Shown: in pieces, positions 13,408-38,157 of the stretch
Position numbering within the stretch: position 1 is the stretch's first letter
Layout: every line of letters begins with the position of its first letter
Assembly (NCBI GenBank): GCA_046757025.1
Contig: JBHHXN010000031.1
Location: 1 to 38,158, forward strand
Length of the DNA stretch: 38,158 nt
Direction of reading: 5' to 3'
Source of the DNA: a bacterium
GTDB taxonomy: Bacteria; Zhuqueibacterota; Zhuqueibacteria; Oceanimicrobiales; Oceanimicrobiaceae
The notes under the pieces: generated by a model
What the model was told of the DNA's origin: nothing
Seen by the model: the letters and a program-made list of their open reading frames with translations, nothing else
Databases searched by the model: none
Made by a program: the position numbers and the translations under genes

Positions 13408-13486
13408 AATAATCCGTCCTCAAATTGTTAATTTTATTAATTTGAAATTTGATATACAAAAAATTAGTTACAAAACTATCTATTTA

Positions 13487-13641
13487 GTGTCTGAACGAAA
13501 ACTACCCAATCTTCCCGAAGACCTCCTGGTTGAGGGTGAATTCCTGCTTAGCTCGGTGGAGCCTGTCCTGAGCTTTGTCGAAAGGACGCCTTCGCGAAGA
13601 GGTTTAGAAATCGTGCATTTTTCGAGTTTTCATTCAGACAC
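13487..13641. mobile_element. MITE-like element, family A copy 1, with 6-bp target duplication TATTTA and a 25-nt internal insertion
   Basis: Ends GTGTCTGAACGAAAACT and AGTTTTCATTCAGACAC (17-bp inverted repeat, 1 mismatch). TATTTA lies at 13481-13486 and 13642-13647. Homologous to 26417-26546. Confidence 0.8.
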
Positions 13642-14161
13642 TATTTATGGTTTAAAAAAGAGCGCTGGGCTTAAAGGCTTTTGCGTAAGTTGAGGTTTTA
13701 CTTAAGGCAGTGACGATATTAAATCTTTTGCTACGGTCCAACCTTTAAATGTGCAATTAACATGTTAAATTCCTGGGAACTCTTCTCAAAATAAAACTCT
13801 TTATTTTGAAGTTTGTTGCAGAGGCAGGAGCAGACTTAAAGTATATTTTATTTCACTTCACTCAATAACGGTCAACCCCAATTAAACGAATCATTTTGCT
13901 TTTAAATTACCCTAAAATCTATCACATTCAGTGAAATGATAACAAAAATACCACTAATTTATTCCAGAAGTGTCAGTCAGGTATCAATTTATTATTCGGT
14001 AAATTTAATCTCAACTGAAATTCACACATAATTCTTTAATAAAATTTCAATAGACTGCAGGTAAAATTGACAAGAATGGTTGACGGGAATAATAATCGTT
14101 GGGATTACTTGAATAGACCAGGTTTAACTTTTCACGAATGTAAAAAATAATATTTAATTTG

Positions 14162-15728: not shown

Positions 15729-18254
15729 TTGTTTGTCAGGACGAATTCTTTGGTTAAGAGAATCTACAAATCGATATTGTTGCCATTCCTTTCCCTGGCG
15801 GTTGCCTTTCCACTATTTGGGGGAATTACCGGCACCATTTCTGGATCCATTTCGGATAAAGAGACCGGACTGGCTTTGCCCGGCGCCGCCATCTTAGTGG
15901 AAGGTACGACTATGGGCGCCATGGCCGATAAAAACGGATTCTACATCATCCAAAATTTACCAGCCGGCACCTATGATGTCAGCGTCAGCATGATCGGCTA
16001 TTCAAAATTTACCGTCAAGAACGTCCGTGTAAATGTTGACCGGATTACCGAACAGAACTTCTATTTGACTACCATCGTGCTTCCGCTGGAGGAAGTGGTG
16101 GTCATTAAAAATCGCGAGCTCATTCAAAGCGACATCACCTCATCCACTTATTTTATTTCCGGCAGCGAAATTACTGAAAAGCTACCTGTGGATTCGTACC
16201 AGGATGTCATCGGTTTGCTGCCCGGCGTCGTAGGCAATCATTTCAGAGGCGGCCGGGAAACCGATGTGGTTTACATGCTGGACGGGCTGCCAATTCAAGG
16301 CGGCCTGTCACGGGAAATTTCAAGCTCGTTTCCCAACAGCTCCATCGTTGAAATGATGGTGCAAACCGGAGGTTTTACCGCTGAATATGGGCAAGCGTCT
16401 TCTGGCATCGTGAATGTGGTAACCAAAGACGGCCGCAACAAAGTTGAAGGGGAAGTTAAAATTTATTCTGATTTCATCGACACCGGTTTAACCGGTAACG
16501 ACAACACCCGCAGACTGGATTTTAACATCGGCGGCCCGCTGACCATGGGACTGGGCGGTCCGCTGATAAATGCCAATTATTTTATCTCGGCCGATCTGAA
16601 TCTCAGCGATACGCCGTTTGGTGATCAAATGCGCAAATCGTTCGACTCGCCAATTTTTCAAAATTACAACTTCAACTCCAAGCTCTCCTTTGACATCGGC
16701 AAAAGTACGATACTGACATTTCAGGGATTGCTCTCCAACTGGAGATGGCGCAAGTTTGATCCGCAGTGGGAACTGAACCTGAGCGGCCTGGCTGAGCACA
16801 GACATTACAGCCATCGCCTAAGTGCCTCGTTAACTCATACTTTTAGTCCAAGTTTCTTTACTTCCTTGCGAATGGCCAACTACTCATACAAACGTACCAT
16901 TTCCGGCGACGTTGAACAGGATCCACCGGATCTGATTTTTGAAGATCCGAACGATCCCACCAGTCGCATTGTAAGCGGTGCACAGCCCTGGCAGGAAACA
17001 ACCCATGAGAATGTGAGCATCGTCAAACTCGATCTGGTAGGAAAAATCAACTCGCACCATTTTGTCAAAACCGGCATCGATTTTCAAAGTTACCATTTGA
17101 ACTCGAGCAATACGCGTTTCAACGCGCTTTCTTCACTGGGCTCAATCCCAGGCATCACGTTCAATAAATTCACCGATGACTTTGAGTTTTCTCCGAGATT
17201 TTTTGGCTTTTATGTTCAAGATAAAATCGAATTCAATGGAATTACAGCCAATCTCGGTTTACGTTATGATATCTTTGCTCCCAGAATAAAAGTCAAAGAA
17301 ATTCCCCAGGAATTTCAGGATTTGCGGAACGCTTTGCGTGCCCCGGCATCCAAAACCCGCACCGTCCAACATACCCCTTTTTCACCACGGTTGGGGATTT
17401 CCATTCCGCTTTCGGACTTGGAGCGGTTACATGTCAACTACGGCTGGTATTATCAAATGCCGCCTTTGTACTACCTCTATACGAATGCCGAACACTCAAT
17501 AAACAGCTATTTGCCATTTGTCGGCAATCTCGGTCTGGAGCCTTCCAAAACCACTTCTTCCGAGTTCAGCTACAAGCGAATCGTGGCCAATAACCTACTC
17601 CTGGTGATCACCGGGTTCACCAAGCAGTTCGAGAATTTAGTGGACACCCGCTCATTTTTACTGTCCGATAGTTTGATCACCTCGGAAACCAAAACCGTGG
17701 GTTTCACGCGCTACACAAATTCAGCCCGCGGGCGTGCTTCCGGCTTCGAAATCACTCTGCAAAAGCGGTTTACGACGGCCTTTTCTGGCCGAATCAGTTA
17801 CACCTATATGAAAGCAAAAGGCACGAGTTCCCAAGCCGAAGACCGATTTAATCTGGCCATTACCGGCGCACCGCCTCCGGAAGAACAGGAATTTCCTCTG
17901 AGCTGGGATCAGCGTCATTCCTTGATCATGGATGCTGATTTTGAAAACGTAAAAATGAAAATCAACATCCTGTATCGATTATTCAGCCCTTTGCCATTTA
18001 CCACACCCGGTAGCGAAACGCCCAACAATGAGCGCCTGTCGTGGCGGAATCTTTTAGATATAAAAATAAAACTCAAATCTTTGAATATTTTGCAGGGCAA
18101 ATTGCAGCCATTTATTGAAGTTCGAAATCTGTTTAACGAAAAAAATATCATCAATCAGATCGACGATTCCGGAATCCGAGCTTACAGATTGTTCGATCCC
18201 ATCAATTCGGATCACGGCCGGCGGCTCCGAATTGGCGTCACGCTACGCATGTAA
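15729..18254 (+). CDS. TonB-dependent receptor with N-terminal carboxypeptidase-regulatory-like domain
   Basis: GTISGSISDKETGLALPGAAILVEGT, plug motifs LPGVV..FRGGR..V.YMLDG and GGFTAEYG.ASSGIVNVVTK, barrel motifs NLGLRYD, FSPRLG, PLSWDQRH and RNLFN. Start may be the TTG at 15750 (AGGA upstream). Confidence 0.92.
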   Translation: MFVRTNSLVKRIYKSILLPFLSLAVAFPLFGGITGTISGSISDKETGLALPGAAILVEGTTMGAMADKNGFYIIQNLPAGTYDVSVSMIGYSKFTVKNVRVNVDRITEQNFYLTTIVLPLEEVVVIKNRELIQSDITSSTYFISGSEITEKLPVDSYQDVIGLLPGVVGNHFRGGRETDVVYMLDGLPIQGGLSREISSSFPNSSIVEMMVQTGGFTAEYGQASSGIVNVVTKDGRNKVEGEVKIYSDFIDTGLTGNDNTRRLDFNIGGPLTMGLGGPLINANYFISADLNLSDTPFGDQMRKSFDSPIFQNYNFNSKLSFDIGKSTILTFQGLLSNWRWRKFDPQWELNLSGLAEHRHYSHRLSASLTHTFSPSFFTSLRMANYSYKRTISGDVEQDPPDLIFEDPNDPTSRIVSGAQPWQETTHENVSIVKLDLVGKINSHHFVKTGIDFQSYHLNSSNTRFNALSSLGSIPGITFNKFTDDFEFSPRFFGFYVQDKIEFNGITANLGLRYDIFAPRIKVKEIPQEFQDLRNALRAPASKTRTVQHTPFSPRLGISIPLSDLERLHVNYGWYYQMPPLYYLYTNAEHSINSYLPFVGNLGLEPSKTTSSEFSYKRIVANNLLLVITGFTKQFENLVDTRSFLLSDSLITSETKTVGFTRYTNSARGRASGFEITLQKRFTTAFSGRISYTYMKAKGTSSQAEDRFNLAITGAPPPEEQEFPLSWDQRHSLIMDADFENVKMKINILYRLFSPLPFTTPGSETPNNERLSWRNLLDIKIKLKSLNILQGKLQPFIEVRNLFNEKNIINQIDDSGIRAYRLFDPINSDHGRRLRIGVTLRM

Positions 18255-25987: not shown

Positions 25988-26132
25988 TTATTTTCATAAA
26001 ATGCAACCAGAATATCACAAAAAAGAACGAATACAGACAACTTTTTGCGTTTTTATTCAACTTCGTGAGGGCTGTTTAATCGCGCAATTTTTATAACGGA
26101 AAACGTAAACCCGGGAGAGAAAGTTCCCCTTA

Positions 26133-26294
26133 GTGCTCCATTTCAGAAATGGTTGTAGGGTTCACAAGAGATAATAGCAGCTACCGATCTTCACCCTTTG
26201 ACTCCCGCTCAGGGTGAAGATCATGGTTTTCCGATTTTGAATTAGCACTCAGCATGAAGACAAGTACCCGACAATCAATTTTGAAATGGAATAC
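26133..26294 (+). mobile_element. MITE-like element, family B copy 1
   Basis: ~30-bp imperfect terminal inverted repeats GTGCTCCATTTCAGAAATGGTTGTAGGGT and ACCCGACAATCAATTTTGAAATGGAATAC; central 12-bp hairpin GATCTTCACCCT...AGGGTGAAGATC; homologous to the reverse complement of 36513-36673. Confidence 0.75.
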
Positions 26295-26416
26295 TTAGCC
26301 ACAAAAGCATAGAAAATTGCGTTGACGCGCCAGTGGCTGTTTCCGCAAACCGTCATTCAACGTCAGCAACAAGGATACGATCGGCAACGACATCCGCTTT
26401 GCTGAATCTCTACATG

Positions 26417-26546
26417 GTGTCCGAACAAACACGACCCTATCTTCGCGAAGTCCTCCTGGCCGAAGGTGATTTCCTGCTCAGCTCGATGGAATGCCGTCAC
26501 AAAGAAGTTTATAAATCGCGCATTTCTCTAATTTTCGTTCAGACAC
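26417..26546 (+). mobile_element. MITE-like element, family A copy 2 (lacks the 25-nt insert)
   Basis: Ungapped 130-nt alignment to 13487-13641 once 13561-13585 is removed (24 mismatches by hand count); ends GTGTCCGAAC and GTTCAGACAC. Confidence 0.78.
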
Positions 26547-30874: not shown

Positions 30875-31017
30875 ACTTTCTTAGAGCCTGCCCTGAACCT
30901 GGCGAAGTGATTAACTCCGCAACGGCAAAATCTATTCCCCTCAAGCTATTTTATTTTCTCAGGTTAAGTGACGTATGATTCTTCGCCCGCCCGCTCAGCA
31001 GGATCGCTCAGAATGAC
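30875..31017. repeat. Decayed GTCATTCTGAG-type REP doublet containing a hairpin mini-element
   Basis: The right unit is GATTCTTCG...GCTCAGAATGAC (30977-31017). 30884-30931 resembles 37173-37219, including GCCTGCCCTGAACCTGGCGAAG. Confidence 0.6.
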
Positions 31018-36086: not shown

Positions 36087-36512
36087 ACTTCACGAACACA
36101 GAATAAATGATTTTAGTTCATCTGGCCCGTACTAAATTTCTTTTCTTATCTATCTGTTTCCACTGCAAGATTTTAAGATTCCCGAAATTTAGTGTTCATT
36201 GTACCAAAAAACGAGGATTAACACAGTAAGTTGATTATTGGTATCGGAAGATTCAGGCGTCTTAAAGTCCCTTGTCAAAGAAATTTACGCAATTAATTCA
36301 TGGAATTCAAACAAAAATACAAATTTAACCATAATTTTACATTTAATTAACGACTCAAATTGTCACGTCATTTCTCCATCCATTGGCAGAATTTCTGGAG
36401 ACCCGACAGAGTTTGAGACGGCCGTAAATACCGCGGAGGCAAACCATTTCGGAGCGCACTTCAAAACGACGGCTAAATTTACCGCCGACTTGAGTGACGG
36501 CAGGATAAATTT

Positions 36513-36673
36513 GTGCTCCATTTCAAAATTAATTGTCCGGCACCTGGCTTCATGGTGAGTCCCAAATCAAATTCGGGACACCAATAAATTCACCCATCGA
36601 TTTTGCTCAGGGTGAAGAGCGGTAGCTTCTACTGGCTCTTGGGAATCCTGCAATCATTTCGGAGATGGGGCAC
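36513..36673 (-). mobile_element. MITE-like element, family B copy 2 (opposite orientation to copy 1)
   Basis: The reverse complement aligns along 26133-26294 (left 65 nt with 12 mismatches by hand count); ends GTGCTCCATTTCAAAATT and TTTCGGAGATGGGGCAC; lies 6 bp after the DUF948 stop codon. Confidence 0.75.
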
Positions 36674-36679
36674 TCCGAT

Positions 36680-37115: not shown

Positions 37116-37363
37116 TTGTCTGAAAGAAAACCCCCTATTTTGACATTTTGAGGAGTCCTTCGACGTTGCTCAGAGCTTGACCTGAACCTGGCGAAGGGAT
37201 AAATTCCACGACGAATAATCGCATGTATCTCAGATTACTAAAATGCAAAAGTGGTGAATTCGTGCAGAGGGTTCGCTCCTTGAACAAACAGACTCCGAAG
37301 GAAAAGATTCTTCGGTCTCCCGGGTAGCGGAATTCCTCAGAATGACACTTTCTGTCCAGACAC
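37116..37363. mobile_element. MITE-like element with family-A-type ends, 6-bp target duplication CAACTA, carrying a GTCATTCTGAG-type REP doublet and nested mini-elements
   Basis: Ends TTGTCTGAAAGAAA and TTTCTGTCCAGACAC. CAACTA lies at 37110-37115 and 37364-37369. Internal TGACATTTTGAGGA...TCCTCAGAATGACA. Confidence 0.72.
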
Positions 37364-37823: not shown

Positions 37824-37968
37824 GTCCATCCGGAATCGTCATTCCCGAATGCTCCCTGCTTAAAACATGCAGGGACAAGCTCATCGGGAATCTCATGCCT
37901 AATGGATCAATGGATTCCCGATTAAAGATTGCGGGAATGACAAAAAAAGGTTCCTTACGGATGGACAC
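37824..37968. mobile_element. MITE-like element with GTGTCC-type ends, 6-bp flanking repeat TAATTA, carrying a CGTCATTCCCG REP doublet
   Basis: Ends GTCCATCCG and CGGATGGACAC. TAATTA lies at 37818-37823 and 37969-37974. Internal units CGTCATTCCCG...CGGGAATC and GATTCCCG...CGGGAATGAC. Confidence 0.72.
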
Positions 37969-38112: not shown

Positions 38113-38157
38113 CACCTTGAGCCCTTCGACAAGCTCAGGATAAACTGCGTCGAAGGG
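38113..38157. repeat. Nested CCCTTCGAC...GCTCAGG hairpin mini-elements at the window edge
   Basis: CACCTTGAG[CCCTTCGACAAGCTCAGGATAAAC]TGCGTCGAAGGG; CCCTTCGAC and GTCGAAGGG form a perfect 9-bp inverted repeat. Confidence 0.7.

Follow-up and report, generated by a model that had tools for sequence, protein, structure and literature searches.

A 23-25-nucleotide insertion unit in a Zhuqueibacterota repeat: boundaries, wide spread and candidate enzymes

How can a block of about 25 nucleotides be present, with clean edges, in one copy of a repeat and absent from another? The question is raised by a stretch of 38,158 nucleotides from a bacterium of the Zhuqueibacterota (contig JBHHXN010000031.1 of GenBank assembly GCA_046757025.1, here "the window"), in which a repeat that we call MITE-A occurs once with and once without such a block (here "the unit"). 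MITE-A (family A) is a miniature inverted-repeat transposable element (MITE), bounded by terminal inverted repeats and flanked by a 6-bp target duplication of the form TANNTA. The unit is real, very small and widely distributed; the enzyme that we discuss for it is a candidate. At 23-25 bases, with sharp edges, it is one of the smallest insertion units known, and it is likely moved with the help of a small nuclease acting on single-stranded DNA (ssDNA).

The unit, its host element and the polarity of gain

The comparison that raised the question involves three features of the window:

13561..13585, plus strand: insertion unit, variant with a 3-nt loop, made of the leader GCCTGT, the core CCT-GA-GC-TTT-GTC-GA-AAG (in which AAG is one change from AGG) and a closing G
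13487..13641, plus strand: host MITE-A, filled copy; its terminal inverted repeats begin GTGTCTGAACGAAAA, and its target duplication TATTTA lies at 13481-13486 and 13642-13647
26417..26546, plus strand: host MITE-A, empty copy; more diverged, and one G short at the site

The block GCCTGTCCTGAGCTTTGTCGAAAGG was found at 13561-13585 as originally predicted, and the copy that lacks it aligns with no other internal gaps. The prediction had called the two a filled and an empty "allele," which they are not: the two loci are paralogous copies of a MITE. Its size of 25 nt holds for the whole unit including the closing purine, but the net gain is 24 nt when measured against the usual empty site of MITE-A, CGGCGGG^GACGCC; the pair in the window differs by 25 nt because the second copy is one G short. 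The contigs of four runs (one study) held no joint skipping the block at the 13561 locus, assembled contigs being unable to show rare alleles, and no autonomous insertion sequence with MITE-A ends was found. Judged by sequence comparison, the block is a non-coding micro-insertion unit of the form (A)GCYTGY-CCT-GA-GC-N2-3-GYC-GA-AGG-R, which inserts without target duplication.

A BLAST search of the source genome (G000) gave 121 MITE-A loci, 90 of which have both anchors and could be scored (31 were dropped): 20 are empty, 58 hold one unit, 11 hold two in tandem, and one, on contig C206, holds an inverted 23-nt unit nested inside its unit. The spacer between the anchors takes steps of 17, 41 and 65 nt, and the net unit is therefore 24 nt. 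A fuzzy pattern for the unit matched 188 times in this genome versus 5 times in one shuffled genome, full hairpins of the longer parent repeat described below being counted as well.

Among 167 genomes of the phylum, MITE-A is shared by only one besides the source genome, the sister genome G013. When identical exact anchors are applied to both genomes, 200 copies in G013 are empty and 1 is filled, versus 13 empty and 21 filled in G000; the single filled G013 copy carries another variant of the unit (a 2-nt loop and an added 5' A) and looks like an independent insertion at the identical site. Gain of the unit is the derived state, since the sister genome has 200 empty sites and one that was apparently filled independently. 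The original prediction had allowed that, if most family A copies carried the block, the empty copy would be a deletion; filled copies are literally the majority (70/90), but in view of the sister-genome counts the idea of an insertion stands. The high fill rate in G000 most likely reflects amplification of MITE-A from a filled founder. A tree of 88 copies with the unit removed is poorly resolved (6 of 85 branches well supported), so that origins of insertion in MITE-A are not countable from it, and the empty state changes 16 times on it versus 17.3 times when shuffled, i.e., the states are not clustered. The members of double-unit copies share derived changes no more than permuted pairs do (4 versus 2.6, p 0.23), and an origin of the doubles by local duplication, which we considered, is not shown by this count.

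The ends of the unit are best seen across genomes. At 125 distinct sites of the exact 23-mer, the following base (+1) is a purine in 124, the preceding base (-1) is A in 78, G in 29, C in 11 and T in 7, and +2 is mixed, which does away with the proposed rule that units follow GA and end at GA; the suspected GA duplication is likewise absent, no target duplication being found at unit sites. Over 125 and 129 distinct sites, conservation in the flanks reaches no further than about -3 and +1. Which base stands at +1 depends on position 6 of the unit: T6 goes with G in 78 cases and A in 46, and C6, counted at 129 distinct metagenome sites, with G in 121 and A in 7 (p 3e-10, the sites not being independent). 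The +1 purine therefore belongs to the hairpin of the unit. Net gains against empty hosts are 23 nt (the unit alone), 24 nt (the unit plus its 3' purine, or a 5' A plus the unit) and 25 nt (both; tandem arrays), so the ends differ by about 1 nt through inclusion or exclusion of the 5' A and the 3' purine. These gains suggest microhomology joints rather than precise strand transfer. Empty-site matches were obtained for 82/285 sites, mostly as single 16-mers that may be chance, and only repeated matches were used. A strict A^G (C^T) target rule was tried and rejected, as the unit itself can supply both bases.

The imperfect hairpin predicted for the unit and its three relatives in the window (listed below) is borne out by ViennaRNA for the 28-nt relative (z -3.72) but not for the other three (z 0.05, -1.08 and -0.01). 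The pairing of the unit rests on covariation; its core contains tandem GA/GA mismatches, whose possible sheared pairing may be given too little weight by the energy model.

Spread, parent hairpin and likeness to known repeats

The exact 23-mer is present at at least 122 loci in GTDB genomes and at 6 in viral contigs, and among the matches listed the record titles name Proteobacteria, Chloroflexi, Nitrospirales, Bacteroidetes, Acidobacteria, Planctomycetota, the candidate phyla radiation (CPR) and others. Within coding regions the unit stands in frame in genes for MutL, a radical SAM (HemN-like) protein, an M48 peptidase, a transporter of the major facilitator superfamily (MFS), a protein kinase and a phage portal (names beyond Pfam are our own reading). 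Three of these genes were compared with their 15 best orthologous loci each, and in every case the gap in the alignment measures 24 nt: MutL has 2 filled and 13 empty, the HemN-like gene 5 filled and 10 empty, and the M48 peptidase 3 filled, 1 partial and 11 empty. With boundaries of its own, unrelated hosts and in-frame gene insertions, the unit bears out the idea of an ultra-small insertion unit. It accounts for identical 8-residue inserts (PSTSSGQA, FDKLRTG, PVLSLSK, LRQAQDR) in unrelated proteins, a possible source of error in annotation and in phylogenies built on indels. The protein kinase gene (L061, ~1500) also has, adjacent to the unit, a second related in-frame insert reading PTTGSGYP.

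Sites of the unit are strongly enriched in other repeats: 42/130 share a 13-mer with at least 3 other loci, versus 6/846 controls, and both orientations occur relative to host repetitive extragenic palindromes (REPs). Empty sites, when rebuilt, fold at -4.9 kcal/mol versus -4.4 at random positions, and near-perfect hairpins (8 of 9 pairs) whose centre is no more than 4 nt from the joint show an enrichment, though they are rare (16/253 versus 24/1126). By both measures the preference is modest, and strict targeting of hairpin tips, which we considered, is weakly supported.

The unit shares its core with a longer REP, (Y)GTCACCCTGAGC-N2-3-GTCGAAGGGTG; this REP is frequent in G000, has a CGTC-type tag and a longer stem, and shows compensatory changes in its outer stems. 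This parent REP lies within 350 nt of 14 of the 18 top loci of one small GIY-YIG subfamily versus 2 of 12 weaker GIY-YIG matches; the query for the subfamily was chosen for having the parent REP, and five other loci had been retrieved beforehand. The subfamily is ~41% identical to an Ssn-like probe, and NCBIfam holds no name for the GIY-YIG subfamilies. Compared with the parent, the unit is missing the outer 3' arm and carries a leader that is new, and it is likely a truncated form of the CGTC-type REP hairpin that flanks small GIY-YIG genes.

Is this, then, an "undescribed system"? That wording goes too far: cyanobacteria are known to carry mobile repeats of very small size, and the parent hairpin resembles a CGTC-type REP. 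Literature searches by DNA words, peptides and concept gave no description of the unit, most subscription papers lying outside their reach. Compared by description, the unit resembles in its working the small dispersed repeats (SDR) of Nostoc. Those of the Nostocaceae reportedly make no target duplication and insert into other repeats and into themselves; the unit does likewise, and at roughly 20-30 nt it has filled and empty homologous sites. SDR are ~20 nt long, dispersed or in tandem, apparently mobile with no known enzyme, and they insert precisely, as SDR5 does into HIP1 (PMC4390886, PMC3116915, PMC2884548; papers cited by such numbers enter here in excerpt, and statements about them hold for those excerpts). 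The unit differs in spanning many phyla, in its tagged leader shared across several cores and in its apparent descent from a REP tied to GIY-YIG genes.

The comparison with CGTC REPs is closer. Like them, the parent hairpin combines a YGTC tag with a short stem, many hosts of the unit are CGTC-type REPs, and in-frame intragenic copies have been described for this class (PMC3733652). Unlike them, the unit has no outer 3' arm or tail, has GCY before TGYC, inserts singly rather than as a dimer and nests in other REPs; against the 8-9 bp stem and short tail that go with the YGTC tag in CGTC REPs and SRM repeats, it shows a 4-bp outer stem and no tail. These repeats flank a small GIY-YIG gene, as the parent does at 14/18 loci but the unit at only 1/251, and the unit derives from the CGTC/SRM class without belonging to it. 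Ssn nucleases with NTS/SRM repeats (Chenal et al. 2025, PMC11893778) are similar in that small single-domain GIY-YIG genes are framed by hairpins and the enzyme cuts ssDNA just 5' of the tag, but mobility of the repeat is not shown in that account; the unit does not frame GIY-YIG genes, and the partner of its parent is a more distant GIY-YIG subfamily. Rickettsia palindromic elements (RPE; PMC3733652) also insert in frame into conserved proteins, but they differ from the unit, which adds no more than 8 residues and is not confined to one lineage.

A short hairpin with a leader and no target duplication is likewise found in the REP, BIME and REPIN repeats of REP-associated tyrosine transposases (RAYT, or TnpA-REP) and in IS200/IS605 elements (PMC8266576, PMC3116915). 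The unit needs no doublet, varies at its ends and has neither a cut dinucleotide nor a target motif that is fixed; GTAG is absent from its hairpin foot (on both strands), and it flanks no cognate Y1 gene (3 Y1 matches in G000; 0/251 loci). Non-autonomous IS200/IS605 elements have a fixed 4-5 nt target motif and precise ends, neither of which the unit has; nor does it have the terminal inverted repeats and target duplication of DDE-type MITEs, which its host MITE-A does have.

What could move the unit

There is direct support for where the unit begins and ends, for the polarity of its gain, for its spread across phyla and its insertion in frame, for the closing purine as part of the element and for a link of the parent hairpin with one GIY-YIG subfamily. 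On this footing we propose, tentatively and a little short of regarding it as probable, that the unit is copied in trans by a small GIY-YIG nuclease together with host repair, the enzyme being a candidate. A single-domain GIY-YIG enzyme would cut an ssDNA donor just 5' of the leader, which would fix the 5' end of the unit at G or at the preceding A; a broken or nicked target end would then pair through 0-2 bases with the foot of the donor hairpin and be extended as far as the cut end, and repair would join the extended end to the other target end. Within MITE-A, the unit would be multiplied passively by transposition of the MITE. "Another REP-associated nuclease" was one of three movers originally offered and fits best of these, though it is unproven. 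A GIY-YIG cut is pointed to because the unit appears to descend from a GIY-YIG-linked REP and its 5' end lies 3-4 nt 5' of TGYC. SsnA cuts ssDNA 4 nt 5' of the CGTC tag, a distance that follows from the length of the product (20 nt) and from the NTS75 oligonucleotide, and the cut position differs among homologues (PMC11893778). The stem register of the unit differs, and it is because the register is ambiguous that we hold the proposal no more firmly. G000 has 11 GIY-YIG and 3 Y1 matches, including an intact Ssn-like gene at C173:9606-9899 with CGTC REPs on its flanks.

Several results weigh against a GIY-YIG mover. The match in cut distance requires that TGYC be the tag; counted from the shared core, the unit starts where the tag of the parent starts, which is 4 nt inward of an SsnA-type cut. 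The nuclease activity of SsnA is hydrolytic, and the cited account (PMC11893778) reports no joining activity for it. The target sites observed fall within loops and arms rather than at the position where SsnA cuts in host REPs. A GIY-YIG match was found near 1/251 unit loci, many loci reaching only 300 nt, the parent-linked subfamily was not found in G000 or in the unit-rich genomes G002, G018, G122 and G127, and 7/37 unit-positive genomes gave no Ssn-like match. Nor did the flanks of 12 enzyme genes in G000 (9 GIY-YIG, 3 Y1) show any framed by the unit. In a set of 133 genomes (37 unit-positive, 96 unit-negative; kin not independent), Ssn-like matches occur in 30/37 versus 37/96 (odds ratio 6.8) and Y1_Tnp in 36/37 versus 78/96 (odds ratio 8.3), with the parent-linked GIY-YIG subfamily (E below 1e-20) in 10/37 versus 7/96. 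This co-occurrence shows only that repeat-rich genomes hold many such enzymes and does not separate GIY-YIG from Y1; because it does not discriminate, the choice of mover rests on anatomy.

The leader of the unit heads at least 2 other units in G000, built on other REP-like cores. A wider and more doubtful proposal, which we consider possible, is that there are pan-bacterial leader-tagged micro-elements (GCYTGY plus an interchangeable REP-derived core, 19-28 nt) mobilised without a transposase, a stand-alone GIY-YIG ssDNA nuclease defining the donor end and host repair writing the copy into a break. If true, this would be a new route of DNA mobility and a source of the 8-residue insertions that recur in core proteins, and it would explain in concrete terms the spread of CGTC-type REPs, which in the cited part of PMC3733652 are reported to have no dedicated transposase. 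For the study of how REP-sized repeats spread, the unit offers a minimal 24-nt substrate on which mobility can be tested directly: its ends are mapped, its leader is defined, empty targets are known, and there are candidate enzymes.

An unlikely alternative, though the best placed of those we weighed, needs no dedicated enzyme: polymerase template switching at hairpins, with slippage between short G runs. Joints with 0-2 nt of microhomology, tandem doubles in 11/90 MITE-A copies and arrays elsewhere, the G runs that flank the unit in MITE-A and the enrichment of its sites in other repeats are all consistent with it. Yet the leader is unlike the parent stem and is identical across phyla and on different cores, insertions occur in genes without likeness to the unit, one unit lies inverted inside another (C206), and members of doubles are no closer than permuted pairs.

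Somewhat less likely still is an HUH (Y1) transposase of the IS200/IS605 TnpA or RAYT type, put forward in the original prediction, that peels off the unit as ssDNA and pastes it. The hairpin with its short leader and the absence of target duplication would suit such an enzyme, and G000 has an intact TnpA plus a RAYT-like gene; the commonest joint, A^G (48/125), is on the opposite strand C^T, the cut dinucleotide of the E. coli TnpA-REP (PMC8266576). However, A^G is no real target rule, the A and the purine often being borne by the unit, about one-third of sites have no A at -1, the ends vary by ~1 nt, and there is neither a fixed target motif nor a GTAG tag. The three Y1 matches in G000 are not flanked by the unit, three Y1 probes matched 0/251 unit loci (many reaching only 300 nt), Y1_Tnp is frequent in unit-negative genomes as well as in nearly all positive ones, and in the cited part of Di Nocera et al. 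(PMC3733652) no tyrosine transposase gene is flanked by CGTC repeats.

We regard as improbable an RNA route, in which a processed hairpin RNA is reverse-transcribed at a nick. Position T6 pairs with A as well as with G at +1, which RNA allows as wobble pairing, and template jumps of a reverse transcriptase would give 1-nt slop; but G-T pairs form in ssDNA too, and Rfam at the gathering score gave no match within the window. Very improbable, and already refuted as a general account by the gene orthologues and the G013 counts, is that the block is an original part of MITE-A deleted from the empty copies: the filled majority and the unclustered states on a poorly resolved tree agree with it, and secondary loss may account for some empty copies, but the one filled site in G013 holds a different variant and the unit also occurs in unrelated hosts and in genes whose orthologues are empty.

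One further GIY-YIG candidate was rejected. A cassette on contig C95, whose inverted repeat contains AGCCTGT, occurs in 5/37 unit-positive versus 9/96 unit-negative genomes, and the ends of its relatives read TTYACCCYGTGA.

Other units and repeats in the window

The three related units originally predicted are present and each is preceded by GA; two further ones with a GTTTAT leader complete the list:

30886..30909, plus strand: unit, within a decayed copy of a composite repeat that is also found at 37175
37174..37198, plus strand: unit with an extra 5' A, inserted into a minus-strand unit
37157..37204, minus strand: older unit with a GTTTAT leader, split by the 37175 unit; spacer states 6, 30 and 50-54 nt
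37853..37880, minus strand: 28-nt sister unit with the leader GCTTGT, as in the unit, and another hairpin core, inside a CGTC REP at 37837-37893
38122..38145, minus strand: unit with a GTTTAT leader, additional to those predicted, in the loop of a parent REP; net gain 23 nt versus copies with a 5-nt spacer

The search pattern proposed for such units has 3 matches in the window versus 0.04 expected, although the copy at 30886 escapes it and ends in GTGA. The 37157-37204 unit itself lies in a CGTC-type REP at ~37141-37220, which makes three nested levels. For the 28-nt sister unit, 48 anchor matches in the genome include 33 filled and 11 empty; the net gain against empty copies is only 26 nt, and its joints are thus not exactly additive. 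A third sister unit, of 19-20 nt, GCYTGTCCCGCAAGGCGGG(G), lies in the 3' part of AGATTCCTCCTGAATGAC-type REPs (C40, C50, C164 and others in G000). At 30977-31017 and 37306-37346 a different GC-rich hairpin gives a 21-nt spacer in a GATTCTTCG...CTCAGAATGAC REP (18/78 matches), whose other spacer states are 5 nt and 11-13 nt; it is probably another micro-insert. A second MITE-like family, with inverted ends of ~33 nt and a full parent REP inside, is found at 26130-26298 and 36510-36674.

Small GIY-YIG genes are themselves found in unusual settings in this genome. In the C95 cassette (G000:C95 ~17310-17610; L003), which lies inside another reading frame that by eye we take to be GxxExxY-like, a 15-bp inverted repeat encloses an intact GIY-YIG gene of 84 aa; most of its 14 relatives have matching TTYACCCYGTGARATA-type ends, with a stop codon inside the right repeat, and the whole has the look of a mobile cassette. 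An Ssn-like cassette that ends on both sides in CGTC-type hairpins is present in five broken copies, at G000:C28:34433, C129:9868, C28:26462, C109:10245 and C337:243; four of them share an identical premature TAA, which suggests copying after inactivation. At G000:C59:26963-27172 (L002), as in L334 and L337, a small GIY-YIG gene lies directly 3' of a tRNA-like gene and is followed by a repeat of the 3' part of the tRNA in which a short hairpin replaces the middle.
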